A stretch of 64,000 nt of DNA from Escherichia coli (GTDB lineage Bacteria > Pseudomonadota > Gammaproteobacteria > Enterobacterales > Enterobacteriaceae): NCBI RefSeq assembly GCF_024502345.1, contig NZ_JALDNN010000001.1; one strand, written 5' to 3'. The position numbers and the translations under genes were made by a program. Positions within the stretch are counted from its first letter, which is position 1. Every line of letters begins with the position of its first letter. Under the pieces are notes generated by a model. The model saw nothing but the letters and a program-made list of their open reading frames with translations. It had not been told where the DNA came from and did not search any database. Below, piece after piece: positions 5,623 to 64,000 of this stretch.

Positions 5623-6612
5623 TTAGCCGCCAATGTACGATAAGTTTTGCGTAATACCGGTGTTGTTTTGATGCAGGAAATGGGTCTGTTTCTTCTCCCG
5701 CAGCGCCGCTGAAATACGCGCTTCCAGCGCCTGTTGCTGGGTATCGTCTTCCAGCAGATCGCGCAGGTTAACGCCGCCTTCACCAAACAGGCAGAGATGG
5801 AGTTTACCAATGGAGGAAACGCGCAGGCGGTTGCAAGTGGCGCAGAAGTCTTTTTCATACGGCATGATAAGGCCAATCTCTCCGGCGTAATCTGGATGGC
5901 AAAAGACTTGCGCGGGACCGTCGCTGCGTTGACGTAATTGGTGGATCCAGCCGCGACGCAGTAGCTCGTCACGCAGAACCTGACCAGAGATGTGATGCTT
6001 ACGGAAGAGCTCGCTGCCCTCGCCCGTTTCCATCAGTTCGATGAAACGCAGCTGGATAGGGCGATGCTGGATCCAGTTCAGAAAGGTGTCGAGCTGGTGA
6101 TGATTAACATCACGCATCAGCACGGTATTGACTTTGACCTTCTCAAAACCGGCCTCAAATGCAGCATCAATCCCCGCCATGACCTGGTTGAATTTATCCT
6201 GCCCGGTAATAGCGTGAAACTGGCGGGCGTCCAGACTGTCGACACTGACGTTAATGCCAGTAAGTCCCGCATCGCGCCAGTTCGCCACATCGCGTTCCAG
6301 ACGGTAACCATTGGTGGTGACCGCAATCTGGCGGATAGCGTCGTTTTCCCGCACAGCGGCGATGATATCGGTAAAGTCGCGGCGTAAAGACGGCTCACCG
6401 CCTGTCAGGCGCACTTTTTCGGTGCCCAGACTGGCGAAGGCGCGCGTAACCCGGCGAATTTCATCGACGGTAAGAAAGCCTTTATTGGTGACGCCGCTCG
6501 GTTTGTAGCCATCCGGCAGGCAGTAGGTGCAACGAAAGTTACACACATCGGTAATCGACAGGCGCAAGTAGTAAAACTTACGCGCAAATGCATCAGTCAG
6601 TTGTGAAGCCAT
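5623..6612 (-). CDS. moaA: GTP 3',8-cyclase MoaA (radical SAM)
   Basis: CNFRCTYC radical-SAM cysteine motif; start set at MASQLTDAF (329 aa) rather than upstream alternative start. Confidence 0.95.
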
Positions 6613-6760
6613 GTACACCTTTCCAGATACGGGAGGCGAAGTCATTTCTTCCTTCGCCCTGGTGGCAATCTTTACGAGCATTGTCACGGCCAAAGCACCG
6701 TATCAGTTGACCCAGGTGCAGAGGCTAGAGTGTTTAGTGGTTATGCCGATACTAGCGTGT
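6613..6760 (-). promoter_or_regulatory. moaA 5' leader; expected location of the molybdenum-cofactor (Moco) riboswitch
   Basis: Long structured leader directly upstream of moaA ending in ..ggaaaggtgtacATG; Moco RNA is known in E. coli moaA leader; exact boundaries not determined. Confidence 0.55.
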
Positions 6761-7974: not shown

Positions 7975-8071
7975 GCCGGATGCGGCGTGAACGCCTTATC
8001 CGGCCTACAAACCGCGCAAATTCAATATATTGCGGAGAAAATGTAGGCCTGATAAGCGTAGCGCATCAGGC
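7975..8071. repeat. REP elements (pair) between ybhK and uvrB
   Basis: gccggatgcggcgtgaacgccttatccggcctac and gtaggcctgataagcgtagcgcatcaggc match the E. coli REP consensus family. Confidence 0.7.
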
Positions 8072-17671: not shown

Positions 17672-17878
<207 letters not shown>

Positions 17879-41858: not shown

Positions 41859-41978
41859 TGGTGGGTCGTGCAGGATGACTCGCTTCGCTCGCCCTTCGGG
41901 CCGTCGCCGCGAGCGGCTCCGTTGTTTCGCTGCGCTCAACTCAAACCTGCTGCAGGTTCGAATCTTTGAGTATCGCAG
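41859..41978. repeat. tRNA-derived fragment block distal to lysQ
   Basis: 17 nt copy of tRNA-Lys 3' end (tggtgggtcgtgcagga) plus inverted T-arm-like gcaggttcgaatc; the 41823-41877 segment duplicates the terminator + tRNA 3' end at 41989-42031. Confidence 0.6.
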
Positions 41979-41984
41979 ATAGCA

Positions 41985-42010
41985 AAAAAGCGCCTTTAGG
42001 GCGCTTTTTT
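41985..42010 (-). terminator. Rho-independent terminator of the lysT tRNA operon
   Basis: aaaaaagcgcc-ctaa-aggcgctttttt hairpin directly 3' of last tRNA; second copy at about 41825-41850. Confidence 0.75.
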
Positions 42011-42014
42011 ACAT

Positions 42015-42090
42015 TGGTGGGTCGTGCAGGATTCGAACCTGCGACCAATTGATTAAAAGTCAACTGCTCTACCAACTGAGCTAACGACCC
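42015..42090 (-). tRNA. lysQ: tRNA-Lys (anticodon UUU)
   Basis: Exact 76 nt match to remembered E. coli tRNA-Lys incl. CCA; anticodon loop CUUUUAA. Confidence 0.95.
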
Positions 42091-42123
42091 CTTGCGGGAT
42101 TATGCTGCTTTAATCATTCAGGA

Positions 42124-42199
42124 TGGTGGGTCGTGCAGGATTCGAACCTGCGACCAATTGATTAAAAGTCAACTGCTCTACCAACTGAGCTAACGACCC
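42124..42199 (-). tRNA. lysZ: tRNA-Lys (anticodon UUU)
   Basis: Identical 76 nt tRNA-Lys copy. Confidence 0.95.
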
Positions 42200-42247
42200 A
42201 TACGGGTGTTACCTGAAAGATTTTTACTCGGGGCCAATCTTTAAGAT

Positions 42248-42323
42248 TGGTGGGTCGTGCAGGATTCGAACCTGCGACCAATTGATTAAAAGTCAACTGC
42301 TCTACCAACTGAGCTAACGACCC
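42248..42323 (-). tRNA. lysY: tRNA-Lys (anticodon UUU)
   Basis: Identical 76 nt tRNA-Lys copy. Confidence 0.95.
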
Positions 42324-42326
42324 GAG

Positions 42327-42402
42327 TGGTGGGTGATGACGGGATCGAACCGCCGACCCCCTCCTTGTAAGGGAGGTGCTCTCCCAGCTGAGCTAATCAC
42401 CC
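42327..42402 (-). tRNA. valZ: tRNA-Val (anticodon UAC)
   Basis: 76 nt match to remembered tRNA-Val(UAC); 3 nt spacer to lysY. Confidence 0.95.
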
Positions 42403-42453
42403 GATACTGCGCTAGATACTACAAACTACTTCCACCGAACCCACCGTAATTAG

Positions 42454-42529
42454 TGGTGGGTCGTGCAGGATTCGAACCTGCGACCAATTGATTAAAAGTC
42501 AACTGCTCTACCAACTGAGCTAACGACCC
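42454..42529 (-). tRNA. lysW: tRNA-Lys (anticodon UUU)
   Basis: Identical 76 nt tRNA-Lys copy. Confidence 0.95.
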
Positions 42530-42531
42530 GG

Positions 42532-42607
42532 TGGTGGGTGATGACGGGATCGAACCGCCGACCCCCTCCTTGTAAGGGAGGTGCTCTCCCAGCTGAGCTA
42601 ATCACCC
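42532..42607 (-). tRNA. valT: tRNA-Val (anticodon UAC)
   Basis: 76 nt tRNA-Val copy; 2 nt spacer to lysW. Confidence 0.95.
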
Positions 42608-42642
42608 GATACTACGCTGGATACTACAACTAACTATGTTAG

Positions 42643-42703
42643 TGGTGGGTCGTGCAGGATGACTCGACTTCGTCTCGCCCTTCGGGCCGTTGCTGATGCA
42701 ACG
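42643..42703 (-). repeat. tRNA-Lys 3'-end-derived pseudo-tRNA fragment in lysT-valT spacer
   Basis: tggtgggtcgtgcagga + tgactcg(a)cttcg(t)ctcgcccttcgggccg, near-identical to the fragment at 41859. Confidence 0.6.
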
Positions 42704-42742
42704 TTATCCTTCACGTTTTACTACCGCTTCCACCTTAGCGAT

Positions 42743-42818
42743 TGGTGGGTCGTGCAGGATTCGAACCTGCGACCAATTGATTAAAAGTCAACTGCTCTAC
42801 CAACTGAGCTAACGACCC
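42743..42818 (-). tRNA. lysT: tRNA-Lys (anticodon UUU)
   Basis: Identical 76 nt tRNA-Lys copy; first gene of operon. Confidence 0.95.
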
Positions 42819-42982: not shown

Positions 42983-43774
42983 TTACATCGCGTTCAGACG
43001 TTTTTGTGCCTGTTTAGCGCCATCAGTACCAGGGTATTTACTGATAACCTGCTGGTATACGGCTTTCGCTTTTGCGGTGTCACCTTTGTCCTGCATGATG
43101 ACGCCGACTTTAAACATCGCATCTGCAGCCTTTGGTGACTTCGGATAGTTTTTCACTACCGAAGCAAAATAGTACGCCGCATCATCTTTTTTACCCTTGT
43201 TGTAGTTTAACTGACCCAGCCAATAATTGGCGTTTGGCAGGTAAGTTGAATCAGGGTAATTTTTGATGAAATTCTGAAATGCCACCATTGCGTCATCCTG
43301 GCGGGATTTATCCTGCACCAGCGCAATAGCTGCATTGTAATCCGTGTTTGCATCACCGCTTTTCACCGGCGCGCCAGCATTCGCAGTACCAGCATCAGCT
43401 GTCGGCGTCGTTGATGCCGCCGCACCGCTTTGATCGACGCTGGTTGATTGCGCCGCTGCACCACCGCTGCTGAGGCTATCGATCTGCAACAGGATCTGCT
43501 TTTGCCGCTCCACGACCTGATTCAGTTGATACTGATTTTCCTGAATCTGACCACGCAGGGAATCAATATCGGATTGATTATCAGAGAGTTGTTGCTGGAG
43601 TTGGGTTAAAAGCTGGCTGTGAGCATTAGAAATACGCTCAAGTTGAGTGACGCGGTCTTCGACCGAGCCTGAGCCGACACTACTGATTGGTGCCTGAGCA
43701 AAAGCGGCCCAGGGGGCCGCTATACCAACCAGTAACGACAGACTCAATAGTTGATGTCTGAAGTTACTGCTCAT
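42983..43774 (-). CDS. cpoB: Cell division coordinator CpoB (YbgF), TPR protein
   Basis: 263 aa; signal peptide, coiled-coil, C-terminal TPR. Confidence 0.93.
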   Translation of the reverse strand: MSSNFRHQLLSLSLLVGIAAPWAAFAQAPISSVGSGSVEDRVTQLERISNAHSQLLTQLQQQLSDNQSDIDSLRGQIQENQYQLNQVVERQKQILLQIDSLSSGGAAAQSTSVDQSGAAASTTPTADAGTANAGAPVKSGDANTDYNAAIALVQDKSRQDDAMVAFQNFIKNYPDSTYLPNANYWLGQLNYNKGKKDDAAYYFASVVKNYPKSPKAADAMFKVGVIMQDKGDTAKAKAVYQQVISKYPGTDGAKQAQKRLNAM

Positions 43775-43783
43775 GCAATTCTC

Positions 43784-44329
<546 letters not shown>

Positions 44330-51914: not shown

Positions 51915-52251
51915 CATGACTCCTTGCTCATCGCATGAAGACTCCGAGAGTGAACCCCGTTAGAAAGGGTCACACGCATGCCCCAATACAAAATTATTTG
52001 CTCGCCTCTATCGTTGCCATTTCATCAAAAGAGGAAAAGACAATGATAAAAAAGTTACAAATATGTTAATGAATAAACCAAATTGATCCCGTAATTATAT
52101 TACGCCGCAAAATCCTTACAATAAACAGGTTTTTATTGAGCAAATTTGCATTTTTCGACAGTGATCAATTTATAGCGAAATTGTCACGATCTCACCAATT
52201 TGATCTACGACAATTTATCGTGTTTTGCAGATTTTTTTCAAGAATTAAAAA

Positions 52252-52265
52252 TTGATTTATATCAA
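52252..52265. promoter_or_regulatory. FNR-type box in the cydA upstream region
   Basis: ttgatttatatcaa = TTGAT-N4-ATCAA about 340 bp upstream of cydA. Confidence 0.55.
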
Positions 52266-52719
52266 AACCAACCAAATATGTTAATTATGTATAAACCATA
52301 GATCATTGGTGATTTTATTGTTAATTTATTGTGAAATATTTATGCAACACAATTATTACAATGAAAAGGTATAGATAAAAAACCAGTGTTTTATTTAACA
52401 GAACCGCCCAATCAACTTTTTATAATACCAATTGATTAGAGTAGCCAATTTGTTGCTATTTTACATAACATATTTTTATCAAAGTTAATTGATTGTTGCC
52501 TTTATGAGCACCGACCGTAAGCCCGTTATGTTATTGTTTCATTAGTAATAATCACTTAAATGTATCGATGAAACAGGTATGACTTACCGGGAGTGATTGT
52601 TTCTGAGTGAACAGAGGCCACTTTCGCCTGATAAATGAAAAATGAGCGATTTTTGCAAGTTAGTTTTTCTATAGCCGAGTACGCTCAGCGCCTCGCTTGA
52701 TTACAATGAGGTTGCTGCT

Positions 52720-53664
52720 ATGAGTCCTGATAATATCGGTTCGGCTGTCAATCGCTTCTCAGGTTGGCCATCTAATGATCCTCTAAAAACAGATGAAGAA
52801 TCAATGAAATCACCCGTGACTGTGCAAGTAATAAAGATGATTGCCGCCATCCTTGACCCACATCGGATAGTCGTTGGAATTGATACACTTTATACAACGC
52901 AGCGCGAAACATTTACCTCAGAGAGTCAACAGCTCATTGAATCAGCATTGCAAACACTTCATGTGATGAATTTAAATAATCTGGAAACAAATCGCGATGA
53001 AGAAGGTCACTATCTGGCTTTTGAATATAACGTTGACACCTCTGACAGAATAACCGTTTCTGCTTATAATGAAAAAAAGCCTGGCTGCTATGGCCAATGT
53101 CTTTTAATACAGGATGACGAAACAGACTTATTTAACCTGATAAAAATTAAAATTTTCGAAGCCAGGCATAATTATGTCGCTCAATTGATGAGCGATCCGG
53201 AATTTATGTTCAAATTCAGTTATAGCGCTCAACAAAATAGATTAGAACCTCATCTTCTGGTTCCCGCTTATTTCCCTCTAAAAACAAACGAACCGGTTAC
53301 GCAAGAGGATGTACTGTTACTTTATCGTTTCTTTAAAATGAATGATGATTTTAATAAATTAACATCAGAGGAATACATGAGTATCATGACTCCTCTGATG
53401 AAGTGTGAGCGTAGCGTCCACGACAACAACAGGTATGTGACGGGCAAAGATACCCATCTTCTGGACTATCCTCCTTCTGGTAACCAGATACATTTCCATA
53501 TTTTTCCTGACGAATCAGCAACACTAGTCCTTTATTTTTCAAACAATGACCTTGAATGTTTCGTCTTTGAAAGAGATATTCCTAGCCAGTATCGCTTTTT
53601 CAAAATGTTTACCAATCTGGCACTGGTTATAGATCAGTTAACCGAAGCCAATAAAATACTTTAA
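52720..53664 (+). CDS. Hypothetical protein (314 aa), AT-rich accessory gene, no recognised domain
   Basis: Intact ORF with SD (gagg) 9 nt upstream; visibly AT-rich codon usage; no TM segment, signal peptide or P-loop; Ser/Asn/Pro-rich N-terminus. Confidence 0.6.
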   Translation: MSPDNIGSAVNRFSGWPSNDPLKTDEESMKSPVTVQVIKMIAAILDPHRIVVGIDTLYTTQRETFTSESQQLIESALQTLHVMNLNNLETNRDEEGHYLAFEYNVDTSDRITVSAYNEKKPGCYGQCLLIQDDETDLFNLIKIKIFEARHNYVAQLMSDPEFMFKFSYSAQQNRLEPHLLVPAYFPLKTNEPVTQEDVLLLYRFFKMNDDFNKLTSEEYMSIMTPLMKCERSVHDNNRYVTGKDTHLLDYPPSGNQIHFHIFPDESATLVLYFSNNDLECFVFERDIPSQYRFFKMFTNLALVIDQLTEANKIL

Positions 53665-53744
53665 TTTTCTATATATCCCTATGGCAAATATTGCTAAACA
53701 ATGCCTGGGGATTAATTTTTATTACTCACGGAAAGATTTAAATA

Positions 53745-54167
53745 ATGATACCATCTCAGATCTCTTTCAATACCCTTCCAGTCAATGCAACATACGCTTC
53801 AGAGACAACAGTTGACACACAAAAATTCTCTGACATCCTCTACTCAGCGGGGTGTTCCCTAAAGGATATGGCTTATCTGAGCAGATGTCTGGCATCAATA
53901 CACCCGACTCTCGCCAAAAACATTTATGAAACAGAAAATCTCAGCGATCAAAAATTACTGCATATTGATTGCCGTAGTACAAATGACATCAAGATAAATA
54001 TCTTTTTTGGTCAGCAACGAGAAGGATTAATTGAAATTAGTTCTGACACAGTTATTTTTTCGATACTGTCTTCATTGATTGACTCCGCCATTTCTAAATT
54101 TCAACATCAAAACCCCGTTAACGGTTCAGTTAATCCTGAACTATTGTATAAGGATTATACTGATTAA
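53745..54167 (+). CDS. Hypothetical protein (140 aa), AT-rich accessory gene, no recognised domain
   Basis: Intact ORF 80 bp downstream of the 314 aa ORF, same strand, SD-like ggaaag; Ser/Thr/Asn-rich N-terminus. Confidence 0.55.
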   Translation: MIPSQISFNTLPVNATYASETTVDTQKFSDILYSAGCSLKDMAYLSRCLASIHPTLAKNIYETENLSDQKLLHIDCRSTNDIKINIFFGQQREGLIEISSDTVIFSILSSLIDSAISKFQHQNPVNGSVNPELLYKDYTD

Positions 54168-54714
54168 ACCCACCCAGTCGCGAAAAATGGCCTGCGTTAT
54201 TGCCAGACGTAATAAAACCGTTGATTAACGTTACTCATACTGGTAGCACCTTCATGTACCTCTCTTTTTTACGAAAAATCAAAAGAGCTAACTAAGGTCA
54301 TAATTCGCATGAATCATTAACCATTTGTTATTTTCAACATTATTTTTACATTAAGCAGAAATGAATTGCAGTGAAATTCGACTTAAATCTTATGAAATGC
54401 ATTTACTCATGGCTAAAACCACGTCACAAAAATGCAAATTAGAAGTAGATCACAATTATCTCAATACATTAAATCAAGTTAATTTTAAAAATTTAACATT
54501 CATGTCATTAGTTGACATAACACACTGAATTAACATGGAAATTTAAAAACACACTTTAAACAATCATTTCCCGAAAGACATTTTGAAAATAGATCAATTG
54601 CAACATTACGGTCAGATAAAGACACTCCTGTGATATTAAACCTGTGCCGTTATGAACGGCCATAAATACGACGTGTGTAACTTATTTTACTCTCTGTCTT
54701 ACAAAGGATTACCC

Positions 54715-55164
54715 ATGAAGAAAGCAACACTTGTGATTGGCGTTATTGGCGCGGACTGCCATGCAGTAGGCAATAAAGTTCTGGACCGCGTTTTTAGCAA
54801 CCACGACTTCAGAGTCATTAATCTGGGCGTAATGGTCAGCCAGGACGAATATATTGATGCTGCCATCGAAACTGGCGCTGACGCGATTATCGTCTCCTCT
54901 ATCTATGGGCATGGCGATATCGACTGTCTGGGCATGCGCGAACGCTGCATCGAGCGTGGACTGGGTGACATCCTCCTCTATGTGGGCGGTAACCTGGTGG
55001 TCGGAAAACATGACTTCGCTGACGTGGAAACCAAGTTCAAAGAGATGGGATTTGATCGCGTCTTTGCCCCAAGTCATGACTTAGAAGATGTTTGTCAGCT
55101 GATGGCCCACGATATCAATCAACGTCATGACGTTGATACTCGTATTCTTGAAGAGGCTATCTGA
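54715..55164 (+). CDS. glmS: Glutamate mutase sigma subunit (B12-binding)
   Basis: Cobalamin-binding DxHxxG motif ([10 protein letters not shown]); close match to remembered Clostridium GlmS/MutS; start at MKKATLVIG. Not the GlcN-6-P synthase glmS. Confidence 0.88.
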
Positions 55165-56552
55165 TGCAAATCGTCTCTGTCGATATTGGATCGACGTGGA
55201 CCAAAGCTGCCCTCTTCACCCGGGAGGGGGACGCGTTAACGTTGGTTAACCACGTACTGACCCCAACCACCACCCATCATCTGGCGAAGGGGTTTTTCTC
55301 CAGCCTGAACCAGGTGTTAAACGTAGATAATGCCCTCCCCCTGTTAAACAGCGGTGAGGTTGCATTGAAGTATTCCTCCTCTGCCAAAGGTGGGCTGGCG
55401 GTTGCCGCAATGGGATTGGTGCCTTCTATCACCCTGGAAACCGCGAAAGTAACCGCTCACTCTGCGGGGGCTAAAATTGCGCAATATTACGCCTACAAGC
55501 TGAACCGCCGTGATATCCAGGCACTGGAAGAAACGCAGCCCGATATTCTCTTGTTCACCGGCGGCACCGACGGCGGAGAAGAAAGCTACGGACTGAATAA
55601 CGCCCGTGTGCTGGCAGAATCCAAACTCGACTGCGCCATTATTTATGCCGGAAACCGGGATATTCAGGACGAGGTGCAGGAGATCCTCGGGCATAAAGAC
55701 CTGACCATCGTCGACAATGTTCTGCCCGATCTTGACCATCCGAACCCTTTAGCCGCACGCCAGGCTATTTGCGACATATTCCTTAAACGCATCGTTAAAG
55801 GGAAAGGGCTGGATGTCATTGTTGATAAAACAGGCGAAGAACCAATGCCGACACCATGGACGGTCTTTGAACTGGTCAAGGCAATCAGTAACGTCGATCA
55901 CAGCTGGAAAGAGTTCATGCTGATCGACATGGGCGGCGCAACCACCGATGTTTATTCCGCCGGTGCCAACACGCTCTCGCCCGACACCGTTTTACACGGC
56001 GTACCGGAACCCTTCGTAAAACGGACGGTGGAAGGCGATCTGGGAATGCGCGTCTCGGCAGTGGTGGTTGGTGAAAGTGCGAAAGAGTTAGTCAATGTGA
56101 ATTTTGCTCAGCAACCCGCACAGCTGGACGCTTTTTATCATTACCTCCGTCATCTAGTCGCTCATCCCGACTACTTACCCGCAAATGCAGAAGAGAAATA
56201 TTTCGATACCGTCCTGGCCGGACTGTGTGTGGGTTATGCCACCGAAAGACATGCGGGCACCAAAAAAGAGGTCTGCACCTGCGTCGGCAATGTCGATTTA
56301 CAGATGGGACGTGACCTGACAACCGTGCGTAAAGTCGTCGGATCCGGCGGATGGCTCTCGCGTGCCAGTCAGTTCGATATGCATCACTGGTTGAAATACC
56401 GCGAGTTAAACGACGACGGTAAACGCATTCTCTTACCGACCGAATTTGAATATTACCGCGATTCCCGGGGGCTATTACCACTGCTGGCAAACGTCGCCAG
56501 AGTCGATCCGCTGGCCGCCGCGCGCACCAGTATTCAATGCTTAACCCTATAA
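55164..56552 (+). CDS. glmL: Glutamate mutase-associated protein GlmL/MutL (actin-like ATPase fold)
   Basis: 462 aa; N-terminal VDIGSTWTKAALF phosphate-1 motif; sits between S and E subunit genes; ATGA overlap with glmS. Confidence 0.8.
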   Translation: MQIVSVDIGSTWTKAALFTREGDALTLVNHVLTPTTTHHLAKGFFSSLNQVLNVDNALPLLNSGEVALKYSSSAKGGLAVAAMGLVPSITLETAKVTAHSAGAKIAQYYAYKLNRRDIQALEETQPDILLFTGGTDGGEESYGLNNARVLAESKLDCAIIYAGNRDIQDEVQEILGHKDLTIVDNVLPDLDHPNPLAARQAICDIFLKRIVKGKGLDVIVDKTGEEPMPTPWTVFELVKAISNVDHSWKEFMLIDMGGATTDVYSAGANTLSPDTVLHGVPEPFVKRTVEGDLGMRVSAVVVGESAKELVNVNFAQQPAQLDAFYHYLRHLVAHPDYLPANAEEKYFDTVLAGLCVGYATERHAGTKKEVCTCVGNVDLQMGRDLTTVRKVVGSGGWLSRASQFDMHHWLKYRELNDDGKRILLPTEFEYYRDSRGLLPLLANVARVDPLAAARTSIQCLTL

Positions 56553-56570
56553 CAATTAAGGCTGCAATCA

Positions 56571-58016
56571 ATGGAACTTCGAAATAAGAAATTAACCCAT
56601 GACGAATTCATGACCGAGCGGCAACAGGTACTGAAAACCTGGGAAACCGGCAAGGATGTTGAAAACTTTGAAGATGGCGTTAAATACCAACAAAACATTC
56701 CTGAGCATAAACGCTTCTCTCATGCCCTGCTGAAAGCAGACAAGGAAGGTAAAACCCTTAGCCAACCGCGCGCAGGTGTGGCGCTGATGGACGAACACAT
56801 CGAACTGCTGAAAACACTACAAGAAGAGTGCGATCTGCTGCCAAGCACCATCGATGCATATACCCGTCTGAATCGGTACGAAGAAGCGGCTGTAGGGATT
56901 AAAAAATCCATCGAAGCCGGAACCTCTAAACTGAACGGTTTACCGGTAGTTAACCATGGTGTCGCAGCTTGCCGTCGCCTCACCGAAACCCTGCAAAAAC
57001 CGCTACAGATCCGCCACGGCACGCCAGATGCGCGTCTGCTGGCTGAAATCTCAATGGCCAGCGGCTTTACCAGTTATGAAGGCGGTGGCATTTCCTACAA
57101 CATTCCGTATGCCAAACGTGTAACGCTGGAAAAATCGATCCGCGACTGGCAGTACTGCGACCGTTTAATGGGGATGTACGAAGAACACGGGATCCGCATC
57201 AACCGCGAACCGTTTGGCCCACTAACGGGTACGCTGATCCCGCCGTTTATCTCGCACTCTATCGCGATAATCGAAGGCTTGCTGGCGCTGGAACAGGGTG
57301 TGAAATCTATCACCGTTGGTTATGGCCAGGTCGGCAGCCTGACGCAGGATGTTGCGGCGATCCAGTCTCTGCGTGAACTTGCACACGAATACTTTCAGAG
57401 CTATGGCTATACCGACTATGAATTAAGTACCGTGTTTCACCAGTGGATGGGCGGCTTTCCGGAAGACGAATCGAAAGCGTTCGCTATTATCTCCTGGGGC
57501 GCAGCCGTCGCGGGGATGTCTGGTGCCACCAAACTCATCACCAAAAGTCCGCACGAAGCCTGGGGCATTCCGACTGCCGCTGCCAACATTCAGGGGCTGA
57601 AAGCCTCCCGCCAGATGCTCAACATGGTCAATGAGCAGAAATTCCCGCCGTGCCCTGCGGTTGAACTGGAAATTGAACTGATTAAGAGCGAGGTTCGCGC
57701 AGTACTGAATAAAGTGTTCGAACTGGGTAATGGTGATATTGCGCGCGGAACGGTGCTGGCATTTGAAGCGGGCGTACTGGATGTGCCGTTTGCGCCAGCC
57801 GCCTGCAACGCGGGCAAAATTCTTCCGGTCCGTGACAACACCGGCGCGATACGCGTACTGGAAGCCGGAGCCGTTCCATTGCCAAAAGATATTCTCGACC
57901 TCCACCACGATTACGTTGCGGAACGCGCACGCTGTGAAGGACGCCAACCGACATTCCAGATGGTTGTAGATGACATCAATGCTGTATCCCACAGTAAATT
58001 AATAGGAAGACCATAA
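56571..58016 (+). CDS. glmE: Glutamate mutase epsilon (catalytic) subunit
   Basis: 481 aa; extensive identity to remembered Clostridium GlmE (LPSTIDAYTR, HGTPD, VFHQWMGGFP, KTPHEA). Confidence 0.9.
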   Translation: MELRNKKLTHDEFMTERQQVLKTWETGKDVENFEDGVKYQQNIPEHKRFSHALLKADKEGKTLSQPRAGVALMDEHIELLKTLQEECDLLPSTIDAYTRLNRYEEAAVGIKKSIEAGTSKLNGLPVVNHGVAACRRLTETLQKPLQIRHGTPDARLLAEISMASGFTSYEGGGISYNIPYAKRVTLEKSIRDWQYCDRLMGMYEEHGIRINREPFGPLTGTLIPPFISHSIAIIEGLLALEQGVKSITVGYGQVGSLTQDVAAIQSLRELAHEYFQSYGYTDYELSTVFHQWMGGFPEDESKAFAIISWGAAVAGMSGATKLITKSPHEAWGIPTAAANIQGLKASRQMLNMVNEQKFPPCPAVELEIELIKSEVRAVLNKVFELGNGDIARGTVLAFEAGVLDVPFAPAACNAGKILPVRDNTGAIRVLEAGAVPLPKDILDLHHDYVAERARCEGRQPTFQMVVDDINAVSHSKLIGRP

Positions 58017-59257
58017 TGAAAATAAAACAGGCCCTGTTCACCGCTGGCTATTCCTCATTCTATTTCGATGACCAGCAGGCGATAAAAAACGGAGCGGGTC
58101 ATGACGGCTTTTTTTATACCGGGGAGCCGGTAACACAGGGGTTTAACGCCGTTCGTCAGGCCGGGGAGTGCGTATCGGTACAGTTGATTCTGGAAAACGG
58201 CGCGGTCGCCGTAGGTGACTGTACTGCCGTACAGTATTCCGGGGCAGGCGGTCGCGATCCACTGTTCCTCGCAGAGCACTTTATTCCGTTCCTCAACGAC
58301 CATATCAAGCCATTACTGGTAGGCCGCGATGTGGATGCTTTCCTGCCGAATGCCCGTTTCTTCGACAAATTGCGTATTGACGGCAACTTGCTGCATACCG
58401 CCGTGCGCTACGGATTATCACAGGCGCTGCTTGATGCTACCGCGCTGGCAACCGGCCGTCTGAAAACTGAAGTGGTCTGTGATGAATGGCAGTTGCCACG
58501 CGTGGCGGAATCCATTCCATTATTTGGTCAGAGCGGCGACGATCGATATATCGCCGTCGATAAGATGATCCTTAAAGGCATCGACGTGCTGCCCCATGCG
58601 CTGATTAATAACGTCGAAGAGAAGCTGGGCTTTAAAGGTGAAAAACTGCGCGAATATGTCCACTGGCTGTCGGATCGCATTCTGAGCAAGCGCACCAGCG
58701 CACGCTACCACCCAACCCTGCACATCGATGTATACGGCACTATCGGTCTGATCTTCGATATGGATCCGCTTCGCTGTGCGCAATACATCGCCAGCCTGGA
58801 AAAAGAAGCGCAAGGCCTGCCGCTCTACATCGAAGGGCCGGTCGATGCCGGTAACAAGCCCGATCAAATTCGCCTGCTGACCGCGATTACCAAAGAGCTG
58901 ACGCGCCTCGGTTCCGGCGTGAAAATTGTGGCCGATGAATGGTGTAACACCTACCAGGATATTGTTGATTTCACTGATGCTGCCAGTTGTCACATGGTGC
59001 AAATCAAAACCCCGGATCTGGGCAGTATTCACAACATCGTCGATGCGGTTCTTTACTGCAACAGCCACAGCATGGAAGCGTACCAGGGCGGCACCTGCAA
59101 TGAAACTGATGTCAGTGCCCGCACCTGTGTCCACGTCGCCCTTGCCGCTCGCCCTATGCGTATGCTGGTAAAACCAGGGATGGGCTTTGACGAAGGCCTC
59201 GATATCGTCTTCAACGAAATGAATCGTACTATCGCGCTGTTGCAGGCTAAGGATTAA
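58016..59257 (+). CDS. mal: 3-methylaspartate ammonia-lyase
   Basis: 413 aa; enolase-superfamily; strong identity to remembered Clostridium MAL (GAGHDGF, VQYSGAGGRDPLFLA, HMVQIKTPDLG); ATGA overlap with glmE. Confidence 0.92.
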   Translation: MKIKQALFTAGYSSFYFDDQQAIKNGAGHDGFFYTGEPVTQGFNAVRQAGECVSVQLILENGAVAVGDCTAVQYSGAGGRDPLFLAEHFIPFLNDHIKPLLVGRDVDAFLPNARFFDKLRIDGNLLHTAVRYGLSQALLDATALATGRLKTEVVCDEWQLPRVAESIPLFGQSGDDRYIAVDKMILKGIDVLPHALINNVEEKLGFKGEKLREYVHWLSDRILSKRTSARYHPTLHIDVYGTIGLIFDMDPLRCAQYIASLEKEAQGLPLYIEGPVDAGNKPDQIRLLTAITKELTRLGSGVKIVADEWCNTYQDIVDFTDAASCHMVQIKTPDLGSIHNIVDAVLYCNSHSMEAYQGGTCNETDVSARTCVHVALAARPMRMLVKPGMGFDEGLDIVFNEMNRTIALLQAKD

Positions 59258-59260
59258 CAA

Positions 59261-60631
59261 ATGGCTCGTTCTTTTAAAGTCTTATCGCCAACGGCAATCC
59301 TCGGGTATGGATTCCCGGAAGAGAGCTTCCGCAAAGCGATGGCAGAATCGCCCGATCTGATCGCCGTTGATGCAGGCTCTTCCGATCCAGGCCCCCACTA
59401 CCTCGGGGCAGGCAAACCGTTTACCGATCGCGCAGGGGTCAAGCGCGATCTGCGCTATATGATCACCGCAGGCGTGCAAAATAATATACCGGTGGTGATC
59501 GGAACGGCTGGCGGTTCTGGTGCCGCACCACACCTGGAGTGGTGCCGAGAAATAATTCATGAGATTGCCCGGGAAGAGCACCTCTCGTTCTCGATGGCGC
59601 TGATCCCGGCAGACGTTGACAAAGCCATCGTCCACCAGGCGCTGGATAACGGCAAAATCACGGCGCTGGAGTTTGTCCCGCCGTTAACCCACGACGCGAT
59701 TGACGAAAGTACGTATATCGTCGCGCAAATGGGCATCGAACCCTTCCAGCGTGCGCTAAAAGAAGGCGCGCAAGTGGTGCTGGGTGGGCGCGCTTACGAC
59801 CCGGCCTGCTTTGCTGCGCTACCGATCATGCAAGGCTTTGATGAAGGTCTGGCGCTGCATTGTGGGAAAATCCTTGAGTGCGCAGCAATCGCCGCAACGC
59901 CCGGCTCAGGCTCTGACTGTGCGATGGGCATCATTGATGACAACGGCTTTACGCTGAAGACATTTAATCCGAAGCGTAAATTTACCGAAACGTCAGCAGC
60001 TGCACACACACTGTATGAGAAATCCGATCCTTACTTCCTGCCAGGACCTGGCGGCGTGTTGAATCTGAAAGGCTGCACATTTAAAGCGGTCAATAACGGC
60101 GAAGTGTACGTCAGCGGTTCTAAGCATGAAGAAACGCCGTATGCCCTGAAACTGGAAGGTGCACGACGGGTGGGCTTCCGCTGTCTGACCATCGCCGGAA
60201 CGCGCGACCCGATTATGATCGCCGGGATCGATAAAATCATCGATGAAGTCAAAACCAGCGTTTCGCGTAACCTGTCGCTCGACGATGACAGCATTCGCAT
60301 CAATTTCCACCTGTACGGCAAAAACGGGGTGATGGGAGACCATGAACCGATGCAAACTGCCGGGCATGAGCTGGGGATTGTCCTTGATGTAGTTGCACCG
60401 ACCCAGGAAATTGCCAACAGCGTTTGCTCGCTGGTGCGCTCTACCATGCTGCACTACGGCTATGAAAACCGCATCGCTACCGCAGGCAATCTGGCGTTCC
60501 CGTTCTCCCCTTCTGATATCCAGGGCGGGCCGGTATACGAATTTTCCATATATCACCTGATTGAAGCCAACGACGCTCTGCGTTTTGATTTCCATATTGA
60601 ACAGGTGACGCCAGAAGGAGTTCAGGCATGA
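59261..60631 (+). CDS. DUF1446 (AtuA N-terminal domain-like) protein of unknown function
   Basis: 456 aa ORF 4 nt after mal; family assignment from memory, not searched. Confidence 0.7.
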   Translation: MARSFKVLSPTAILGYGFPEESFRKAMAESPDLIAVDAGSSDPGPHYLGAGKPFTDRAGVKRDLRYMITAGVQNNIPVVIGTAGGSGAAPHLEWCREIIHEIAREEHLSFSMALIPADVDKAIVHQALDNGKITALEFVPPLTHDAIDESTYIVAQMGIEPFQRALKEGAQVVLGGRAYDPACFAALPIMQGFDEGLALHCGKILECAAIAATPGSGSDCAMGIIDDNGFTLKTFNPKRKFTETSAAAHTLYEKSDPYFLPGPGGVLNLKGCTFKAVNNGEVYVSGSKHEETPYALKLEGARRVGFRCLTIAGTRDPIMIAGIDKIIDEVKTSVSRNLSLDDDSIRINFHLYGKNGVMGDHEPMQTAGHELGIVLDVVAPTQEIANSVCSLVRSTMLHYGYENRIATAGNLAFPFSPSDIQGGPVYEFSIYHLIEANDALRFDFHIEQVTPEGVQA

Positions 60632-60945
60632 AACAGTCAATTGTCTCACTGGCGCAAGTCATTCGTTCGAAAAATGCCGGACCTTACGAACTGGTTTTAG
60701 ATATTTTATTTAAAACGAAAGAAAACTATGAGCGAGTTAAATCATCAGGGCAATTAACCCCAGAACTGATTGCGCGCTTATATCATGTTGAACCTGACTT
60801 TATTCATCGTATTGTCTGGTTTGATCCTTCTAACGCAGTAAAAATCGTCATGCCACGAGATATTATCTCCGGGAATGTAGGTGACAATGATGTCTATGGT
60901 GCACAGCAACATGCACCTTTATTAAATATGAGTTTCGATTTGTAA
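60628..60945 (+). CDS. DUF4387 (AtuA C-terminal domain-like) small protein
   Basis: 105 aa ORF overlapping preceding ORF by 4 nt (ATGA); family assignment from memory. Confidence 0.65.
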   Translation: MKQSIVSLAQVIRSKNAGPYELVLDILFKTKENYERVKSSGQLTPELIARLYHVEPDFIHRIVWFDPSNAVKIVMPRDIISGNVGDNDVYGAQQHAPLLNMSFDL

Positions 60946-61028
60946 AAATCCGAATACTTTTAGCCAACTGACATCCCGTCACTTATTACAGTTCAACACT
61001 TCAGCTATTTGTAAGGTTGTAATAGCAG

Positions 61029-61060
61029 GTAGATGCCTGAATCTCTATTCAGGCATCTAC
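61029..61060 (+). terminator. Inverted repeat / possible attenuator between DUF4387 gene and transporter gene
   Basis: gtagatgcctgaatctctattcaggcatctac perfect 14 bp stem; no clean U-tract. Confidence 0.4.
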
Positions 61061-61084
61061 TTCTCCTGATTCTGATTTATCGCC

Positions 61085-61378
61085 GTGCACCTGATGGAGG
61101 AAAAAATGAAGAAAATAAGTTTAACCACGATGATTCTTTTGGCGCTGGTACTTGGAATGATTATCGGCGTAGTGCTCAATAACACTGTTTCACCGGAAAC
61201 AGCAAAACTCTATGCGCAAGAAATATCGATATTCACGACGATTTTCTTACGACTGATAAAAATGATTATCGCTCCGTTAGTGGTCTCTACCCTGGTGGTA
61301 GGTATTGCTAAAATGGGAGATGCCAAAGCCCTTGGTCGTATTTTTTCTAAAACACTCTTTTTATTTATTTGCGCCTCA
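61085..61378 (+). pseudogene. 5' fragment (98 codons) of a DAACS-family (GltP/DctA-like) dicarboxylate/amino acid:cation symporter gene, truncated by IS1
   Basis: [30 protein letters not shown] matches the GltP N-terminal signature; reading frame runs into IS1 and stops after 8 IS1-encoded codons. Confidence 0.85.
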
Positions 61379-61433
61379 GGTGATGCTGCCAACTTACTGA
61401 TTTAGTGTATGATGGTGTTTTTGAGGTGCTCCA

Positions 61434-61709
61434 GTGGCTTCTGTTTCTATCAGCTGTCCCTCCTGTTCAGCTACTGACGGGGTGGTGCGTAACGGCAAAA
61501 GCACCGCCGGACATCAGCGCTATCTCTGCTCTCACTGCCGTAAAACATGGCAACTGCAGTTCACTTACACCGCTTCTCAACCCGGTACGCACCAGAAAAT
61601 CATTGATATGGCCATGAATGGCGTTGGATGCCGGGCAACCGCCCGCATTATGGGCGTTGGCCTCAACACGATTTTCCGCCATTTAAAAAACTCAGGCCGC
61701 AGTCGGTAA
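61434..61709 (+). CDS. insA: IS1 protein InsA
   Basis: 91 aa; zinc-finger CPSC..CSHC; matches remembered InsA. Confidence 0.95.
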
Positions 61710-62131
61710 CCTCGCGCATACAGCCGGGCAGTGACGTCATCGTCTGCGCGGAAATGGACGAACAGTGGGGATACGTCGGGGCTAAATCGCGCCAGCGCTG
61801 GCTGTTTTACGCGTATGACAGGCTCCGGAAGACGGTTGTTGCGCACGTATTCGGTGAACGCACTATGGCGACGCTGGGGCGTCTTATGAGCCTGCTGTCA
61901 CCCTTTGACGTGGTGATATGGATGACGGATGGCTGGCCGCTGTATGAATCCCGCCTGAAGGGAAAGCTGCACGTAATCAGCAAGCGATATACGCAGCGAA
62001 TTGAGCGGCATAACCTGAATCTGAGGCAGCACCTGGCACGGCTGGGACGGAAGTCGCTGTCGTTCTCAAAATCGGTGGAGCTGCATGACAAAGTCATCGG
62101 GCATTATCTGAACATAAAACACTATCAATAA
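61628..62131 (+). CDS. insB: IS1 transposase InsB (expressed as InsAB' by -1 frameshift)
   Basis: 167 aa ORF in -1 frame relative to insA. Confidence 0.93.
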
Positions 62132-62146
62132 GTTGGAGTCATTACC

Positions 62147-62555
62147 AATCGCCGTTATTAGCTAAAGAATGAATATTAACAATAATATCGGGATGTAACT
62201 TTGTGAATTCATGTAAATTTGGGATTAACCAGTGGGTACTAAAAGTAGGATTAACGGCAAGTTCAATAACCTGAACCGTAGGCTGCCAGGTCATAATGGT
62301 ATTGGTATCGCGTTCCAGCTTATTTAATGTTTCTTTTACTATCCCCAGGTAATACTTCCCTGCATCATTAAGAAAAATGCGTTTTTTAGAGTGTGAAAAT
62401 AACGGAGTACGTAAAAATTCCTCCAGCGCACTTACTTGTCTGAATACTGCACTTTGGGTTAACGCTAACTCCTCTGCCGCTCTGGTATAACTTTCATGAC
62501 GTGCGACGACCTCAAAAGTCACCAGCAGTTCCGTTTTAGGTATTTTCCCTCGCAT
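62147..62555 (-). pseudogene. LysR-family regulator, 3'-truncated by IS1 (only about 135 N-terminal codons remain)
   Basis: LysR HTH (TFEVVARHESYTRAAEELALTQSAVFRQVSALE); last codon and stop are supplied by the IS1 end. Confidence 0.85.
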
Positions 62556-63118
62556 AATGCCGTCCCTTAAAAATAGTTTAAACCATCAAAAATACATTAC
62601 TTATTACGAAGTAATGGTAACAAAGCAGCAATAAATAATTTATAAGAATCATGATTGACATTTATAAACCAGTAAGGCTGGCGTGACAAATATCTTAATC
62701 AGATAATAATAATCCGAAAAGCACAGCGCCTTTCGAATTATCCGGAATCACATTAAGTGAAAATTATTAAATTGATATCATTTATCATATCTGTGGATAT
62801 TATGATAAACAATCAACAAAGATTTTATTTTTGATTTATAGCATATCCATCTAAGAATTTTTGCGATGCTGCAATATCCGGGGTAAAGACCCGATCCTGG
62901 CTGACAAATGGCACGACTTGACGAAAAGCGGTGAACATCGCTTTTGTTGATTTACTTAACGCTACGGTCAAACGCTGGGAAGCCAGTGCATCAGGTAACG
63001 ATTCGAAATTCGCCGTCGTTCTTATTCGTGGCTTGCGGTCGGTCGCGGCAATCCACAGTGGCTGTGGTCATGCAGTCAAGCCTGCAGTCAGATTTCGACC
63101 GTGGTTAACCGTTTAAGG

Positions 63119-63220
63119 TATAAAAAAGGCCATCATACGATGGCCAACCATGTCGAAACCGACAGCCCTTCGCCATTCCTGTAGAGGGAAGCGGCGAGGG
63201 CTATTTCTTATTACAGATAT
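63119..63220 (-). ncRNA. sdhX: sucD 3'UTR with terminator; expected location of 3'UTR-derived sRNA SdhX
   Basis: Immediately after sucD stop; ends in hairpin ggccatcgtatgatggcc + T6; SdhX is reported to derive from the sdh-suc operon 3' end. Confidence 0.55.
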
Positions 63221-64000
63221 TTATTTCAGAACAGTTTTCAGTGCTTCACCGATATCCGCCAGGCTGCGAACGGTTTTCACGCCTGCGGCTTCCAGAGCAG
63301 CGAATTTCTCATCCGCAGTCCCTTTCCCACCGGCAATGATGGCACCCGCGTGGCCCATACGTTTGCCTTTCGGCGCAGTCACACCAGCGATGTAACCCAC
63401 AACTGGCTTGGTAACGTGCTCTTTGATGTACGCAGCTGCTTCTTCTTCAGCGCTACCGCCGATCTCACCGATCATCACGATCGCTTCGGTCTGCGGATCT
63501 TTTTCGAACATTTCGAGAATGTCGATAAAGTTAGAGCCAGGGATCGGGTCACCGCCGATACCGACACAGGTCGACTGACCGAAACCGTAATCCGTGGTCT
63601 GTTTAACCGCTTCATAGGTCAGTGTACCGGAACGGGAAACGATACCCACTTTACCCGGTTTGTGAATGTGACCCGGCTGGATACCGATTTTGCATTCACC
63701 CGGAGTGATAACGCCCGGGCAGTTCGGGCCGATCATACGAACGCCGGCTTCGTCCAGTTTCACTTTCACAGTCAGCATATCCAGCGTCGGGATGCCTTCA
63801 GTGATGGTGATAATCAGTTTGATGCCTGCATCAATAGCTTCCAGAATGGAGTCTTTGCAGAACGGTGCTGGTACGTAGATAACAGAAGCGGTAGCGCCAG
63901 TAGCAGCAACAGCTTCACGCACGGTGTTGAACACCGGCAGGCCGAGGTGGGTAGTACCGCCTTTACCTGGGGTTACGCCGCCAACCATTTTAGTGCCGTA
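63221..64000 (-). CDS. sucD: Succinyl-CoA synthetase alpha subunit, 5'-partial (start beyond window end)
   Basis: Frame open to window edge; matches remembered SucD through C-terminal ..ALKTVLK. Confidence 0.95.

Follow-up and report, generated by a model that had tools for sequence, protein, structure and literature searches.

The sucD 3' untranslated region of an Escherichia coli chromosome matches the small RNA gene sdhX and borders a variable gene block

The window analysed here is a stretch of 64,000 nucleotides of the E. coli chromosome (contig NZ_JALDNN010000001.1, assembly GCF_024502345.1) that runs in the reversed orientation relative to K-12 and ends inside sucD, the gene for the alpha subunit of succinyl-CoA synthetase (Table 1). 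The last 260 codons of SucD lie within it; their translation is that of K-12 SucD without any differences, at a DNA identity of 98.4%, and sucC-sucD synteny is present in related genomes. The TAA stop codon of sucD occupies positions 63223-63221 on the minus strand, and the sequence matched to sdhX starts at 63220, directly 3' of this codon; the sucD 3' UTR extends on the same strand from 63220 down to 63120. Two open reading frames on the plus strand were considered and set aside, namely an 81-codon frame antisense to this region (63150-63395), which has no Pfam match, and a 61-codon frame in the adjoining spacer (62931-63116), which returned noise-level matches only. Elsewhere in the window, Rfam matches were found at 6600-6744, 41859-42818, 43745-43883, 17727-17797 and 8009-8050, and the families represented are the Moco riboswitch, the lysT-valT tRNA cluster with its RtT elements, the cpoB/ybgF thermometer, naRNA4 and ES036. 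These further features are expected for this region of the E. coli chromosome.

Table 1. Features at the end of sucD and in the adjoining gene block. Positions are those of the window; a dot marks features given without a strand.
Feature	Position	Strand	Remarks
sucD, 3' part (succinyl-CoA synthetase alpha subunit)	63221..64000	-	gene continues past window end
sdhX (RybD), full-length 101-nt 3' UTR-derived sRNA gene	63120..63220	-	100/101 identical to K-12 b4764
SdhX 5' stem-loop, nt 19-57, E. coli-specific C/U-rich stretch including C34	63164..63202	-	from MFE structure and pairing probabilities
RNase E-type motif GG↓UUU (RN↓WUU)	63156..63160	-	predicted cut between 63159 and 63158
Seed UUCGACAUGGU	63147..63157	-	core CGACAU at 63155-63150; complementary to ackA -2 to +8
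Rho-independent terminator hairpin GGCCAUC-GUAU-GAUGGCC	63128..63145	-	7 bp, of which 5 G-C; loop of 4
U6 tract, 3' tail, expected Hfq-binding end	63122..63127	-	final segment common to K-12
Breakpoint zone, start of cluster-specific flank	63119..63121	.	K-12 identity to 63122, CFT073 identity to 63120
Probable 3'-end remnant of histidine/aromatic-amino-acid ammonia-lyase gene	62825..63067	-	80-codon frame and stop
Truncated LysR-family regulator gene, co-oriented with sucD	62147..62555	-	about 136 of 301 codons left; Pfam HTH_1 E = 1.6e-17
IS1 copy	61379..62146	.	99.5% over 769 bp to annotated IS1B of strain MEW

The K-12 MG1655 reference carries a curated ncRNA gene, sdhX (b4764; NC_000913.3 765050-765150), directly after sucD. 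In a direct alignment the window sequence has the same position and the same length and is identical to this gene at 100 of its 101 bases; the only mismatch, A for G, falls at nt 100 (63121), 3' of the six-U tract. Every base through the U tract is therefore that of the K-12 RNA, which was experimentally tested (PMC6393394), and the published functional parts of SdhX (the seed, G62, C34, the terminator hairpin and U6) are all intact. Judged by its sequence, the feature after sucD is almost certainly the known sRNA gene sdhX (RybD), intact and ordinary; SdhX is already well described in E. coli, and there is nothing new in it here. The preliminary description had expected an SdhX sRNA at the 3' end of sucD and had named alignment to the published RNA as a check. 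The expectation is borne out by that alignment and by the presence of the published seed and terminator. The range it gave, 63119-63220, captures the feature but exceeds the 101 nt annotated in K-12 (63120-63220) by one base, and it named no strand, although the hairpin it quoted was written in the sense of the minus strand, on which the feature lies.

A search of Rfam 15 returned no SdhX-type family, either at the gathering score across the whole window or at E <= 10 in the interval 62700-63400, and the sole local match near sdhX was a generic terminator resemblance to isrD (E = 1.1). In the RefSeq records that we examined other than curated MG1655, no feature is annotated at the site. We attribute this to a pipeline effect, since the name occurs only in the curated MG1655 record. 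As sdhX is both unannotated in RefSeq outside MG1655 and without an Rfam match, automated annotation misses it.

The gene itself is nearly universal. Using the 101-nt sequence as the query, we found sdhX in 5425 of 5426 complete E. coli genomes, and the matches divide into 4225 at an identity of 99% or more, 1194 at 95-99% and seven at 90-95%. In the few strains that were aligned, the variants change the 5' stem-loop or the terminator loop and leave the seed and the terminator stem as they are. In O157 TR01 a C49U change in the 5' stem-loop retains a G-U pair; the CFT073 copy carries A45G and U46G in the same stem-loop and G83U in the terminator loop.

The combination of a hairpin with a T-run seen at the end of the UTR occurs once in the window, where none is expected from 100 shuffles. 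The 111-nt region folds with a free energy of -42 kcal/mol, compared with -25.3 +/- 3.4 for shuffled sequences (z = -4.9), and none of 200 shuffles was as stable. These values agree with the earlier statement that roughly 100 nt after the sucD stop end in a strong hairpin, here of seven base pairs, and a U-run. Just upstream of the terminator lies the seed UUCGACAUGGU with its CGACAU core, as given in PMC6393394; this sequence has one exact match in the window, where 0.05 would be expected. With K-12 ackA as a proxy, the strain's own ackA, katG and fdoG lying outside the window, the seed is predicted to form ten contiguous base pairs (UUCGACAUGG with CCAUGUCGAG) from -2 to +8, across the AUG and the following UCG. 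Only this 10-bp seed duplex was taken from the duplex prediction, which for the full-length RNA opens the terminator unrealistically. The ackA target segment is conserved in 5424 of the 5426 complete genomes. Upstream of the seed, C34 (63187) belongs to an E. coli-specific region whose pairing with the katG Shine-Dalgarno sequence is supported by the compensatory mutation C34G, and G62 (63159) pairs with fdoG, again by compensatory mutation (PMC6393394). Binding of Hfq and repression in vivo of ackA, katG and fdoG are known for K-12 and Salmonella (PMC6393394).

A motif scan of the last 40 nt of sucD together with the 3' UTR identified a single RN↓WUU motif, the GG↓UUU at nt 62/63. A cut at this position, which has been probed in published work by a UUU to CCC mutant (PMC6393394), is predicted to yield a 39-nt fragment, in agreement with the published functional form of SdhX of about 38 nt (PMC6393394, PMC9438474). 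On average, the seed is predicted to be unpaired with a probability of 0.91 in the 39-nt form and of 0.60 in the 101-nt form, in whose predicted fold its CGAC pairs with GUCG at nt 58-61. By analogy with the K-12 and Salmonella literature, processing, Hfq dependence and target repression would hold for the source strain as well.

Beyond the U tract the window departs from K-12. Similarity to K-12 stops at 63122, the last T of the tract, and returns at 52290, upstream of cydA; no part of the window matches the K-12 mngR-mngA-mngB segment (L001 3150-9085). In place of that segment stand about 10.8 kb that are about 99% identical to the region that follows sucD in O157:H7 and ES5. CFT073 has a third alternative, a TPR-repeat pseudogene (L005 21546-23487), and agrees with the window as far as 63120. 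The three flank types all diverge within two bases of the U tract, and the edges on the cydA side differ among the blocks (52290 versus K-12, 52555 versus CFT073). Among complete genomes, the sdhX terminator is flanked by the mngR type in 3884, by the methylaspartate cluster type in 837 and by the TPR type in 547, which leaves by subtraction about 157 with a flank outside these three queries. The sucD-cydA interval is occupied by at least three alternative blocks, all of which start at the sdhX terminator. The preliminary description rightly placed the start of an island immediately beyond the terminator, with sdhX undisturbed. Its view of a simple insertion does not hold, as relative to K-12 the block replaces mngR-mngA-mngB. 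Junctions of the cluster and CFT073 types have A at nt 100, where the K-12 type has G, and since the window has A, the annotated 101-nt RNA would already reach into the variable flank with its final one or two transcribed bases.

A site-specific integrative genomic island was considered for this block and rejected: no att-like flanking direct repeats were found at the cluster boundaries (52200-63200), no integrase gene is annotated in the equivalent regions of O157, MEW and ES5, and mngRAB is replaced by the block. Two inverted matches to the SdhX terminator region occur on the plus strand inside cluster genes, one at 58101-58120 (18 of 20 positions, to ATGATGGCCTTTTTTATACC) and the other at 52762-52779 (16 of 18, to GGTTGGCCATCGTATGAT). 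We do not regard them as att-like repeats, as they are at about the level expected by chance in an all-against-all comparison. Within the cluster type, sequence differences are concentrated in the roughly 50 nt past the terminator (63068-63119), where PCN033 and PCP06238 show five to six changes including a 1-nt indel, and the next 200 nt or so are almost invariant.

In O157:H7 and ES5 the region comprises genes for a LysR regulator, cobO, a class I fumarate hydratase, a dicarboxylate symporter, a DUF4387 protein, an AtuA-like protein, methylaspartate ammonia-lyase and glmE-glmL-glmS. This is the known glutamate fermentation (methylaspartate pathway) cluster of enterobacteria with the FumD mesaconase, for which glmS-glmL-glmE, methylaspartate ammonia-lyase, DUF1446/AtuA-like proteins, a GltP-like transporter, FumD, a cob(I)alamin adenosyltransferase and a LysR regulator have been described (PMC4682846, Kronen and Berg 2015). 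In the window the LysR gene keeps its helix-turn-helix and the start of the substrate-binding domain, and alignment to O157/ES5 stops at 62147. The IS1 element (flanks 60945-62555) joins LysR codon 136 or so to the first 90 or so codons of the dicarboxylate symporter gene. Compared with O157/ES5, 3.9 kb are missing at this point, consisting of the LysR C-terminus, cobO, FumD and most of the transporter gene. From its gene content, the glutamate fermentation cluster of the window appears as a degraded, incomplete copy. This exact IS1-deletion structure was absent from the best 15 matches among complete genomes. In the LysR pseudogene of O157:H7 TR01, just beyond the position equivalent to 62147 (L002 4096-4135), exactly 40 bp of the gene have given way to a 40-bp IS1 end, so that the gene keeps its length and is listed in RefSeq with an 'internal stop'. 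In strain MEW a full IS1 lies upstream of the LysR gene. These observations suggest three separate IS1 events at one LysR regulator, in the window, in O157:H7 and in MEW.

Between the LysR gene and the terminator, the putative lyase remnant falls within the first 300 bp or so of the cluster. Its last 45 residues match positions 453-497 of the 505 in NCBIfam NF006871 (E = 5e-4). There are also matches to five further models of lyases or aminomutases, in the C-terminal 60 residues or so of those models. Other Escherichia have near-identical fragments, which their sources call histidine ammonia-lyase or aromatic amino acid lyase. The cluster edge thus probably cuts through an old lyase gene, truncated at the boundary formed by the sdhX terminator.

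Consideration of the flank bears on whether the sucD 3' UTR acts here as it does in K-12. The region could be merely the sucD terminator and 3' UTR, giving no trans-acting RNA, and the new downstream context could block the formation of a stable fragment; the sequence past the U tract does differ from K-12, and RefSeq lists no feature at the site in non-K-12 genomes. That missing feature reflects the annotation pipeline, and the full agreement with the tested K-12 RNA through the U tract, together with the conservation of sdhX in the 837 genomes that carry the cluster-type junction, makes this reading very unlikely. We give still less credence to a reading in which the sRNA is transcribed separately, from a promoter of its own within the end of sucD, and is not processed from the operon mRNA. 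This idea was at first favoured by the observation of Miyakoshi et al. that SucD and SdhX accumulate incongruently, but the paper reports neither a transcription start site nor a conserved promoter, and both SdhX species were lost in an rne temperature-sensitive strain (PMC6393394). Our promoter scan likewise found no sigma-70-like promoter on the minus strand at 63150-63500. The lack of a promoter-like site and the single RN↓WUU motif are consistent with RNase E processing of the operon mRNA.

It is also conceivable, at a slim probability, that the changed 3' flank makes this a functionally distinct SdhX variant, either through an altered 3' end or Hfq binding, or through read-through from sdh-suc into the regulator of glutamate fermentation. 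In the flank an A/U-rich AUACCUUAAA replaces GUGCUUAUCG, and nt 100 differs with it. The convergent mngR, which in K-12 lies on the opposite strand and ends 2 nt from sdhX, is absent, and the gene nearest to sdhX is the co-oriented LysR gene, 564 bp away. Against this, the hairpin and U6, which are the determinants of termination and Hfq binding, are unchanged, and in the window IS1 has in any case truncated the LysR gene. Slight differences from K-12 in termination efficiency and in the exact position of the 3' end are conceivable, since nt 100 and the sequence past the U tract are different; any effect of the changed neighbour on read-through or on the RNA 3' end is speculation. The preferred reading remains that of an intact and ordinary sdhX.

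The same RNA in K-12 differs from that of the window in its setting, with the convergent mngR as its downstream neighbour in place of the methylaspartate cluster. In Salmonella, SdhX1 is 87 nt and SdhX2 38 nt in length (Miyakoshi et al. 2019, PMC6393394). The Salmonella RNA and the window sdhX have the same parental operon, and in both the core seed CGACAU stands ahead of a terminator and U tail, with an RNase E-type site shortly before the seed; the logic of the ackA target is shared as well. The region from the sucD stop to the seed is not conserved, and the katG-pairing stretch and G62 are specific to E. coli (PMC6393394); in this region the window has the E. coli version, unlike Salmonella SdhX. 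CpxQ, SroC, NarS, MalH and GlnZ share the general design of an operon terminator with an upstream seed and release by RNase E (PMC9438474), and they are likewise Hfq-dependent. Their parental genes and targets are different, and the likeness drawn here is one of design.

Taken together, these data fit a mechanism in which the sdhCDAB-sucABCD transcript would end at the intrinsic terminator (63145-63122, minus strand) and RNase E would free the 3' end of the operon mRNA as an RNA of about 101 nt whose first base directly follows the sucD stop codon. Further cleavage at GG↓UUU would trim this to a core of about 38-39 nt. Once Hfq occupies the hairpin and U tail, the single-stranded seed may pair across the start and second codon of ackA and so repress the translation of acetate kinase. 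The E. coli-specific upstream part of SdhX may pair with katG, around C34, and with fdoG, through G62. Such action would link expression of the TCA-cycle operon to acetate metabolism.

The finding has little importance beyond the right annotation of the locus and the confirmation that sdhX is intact despite the replacement of its neighbouring genes. A modestly useful point is that automated pipelines miss a gene present in essentially every E. coli genome. The sdhX terminator marks a sharp boundary between a conserved core and a variable segment. A broader proposal, which we hold to be improbable, is that this terminator is the fixed left edge of a sucD-cydA replacement hotspot with at least three swapped blocks, and that in cluster-type strains read-through from the TCA operon could reach the control of an acetate-producing glutamate fermentation, because the convergent gene is absent and the LysR regulator is co-oriented. 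SdhX couples expression of the TCA-cycle operon to acetate kinase, and if this proposal were true, the glutamate fermentation pathway would come to lie in the same circuit as SdhX and ackA.
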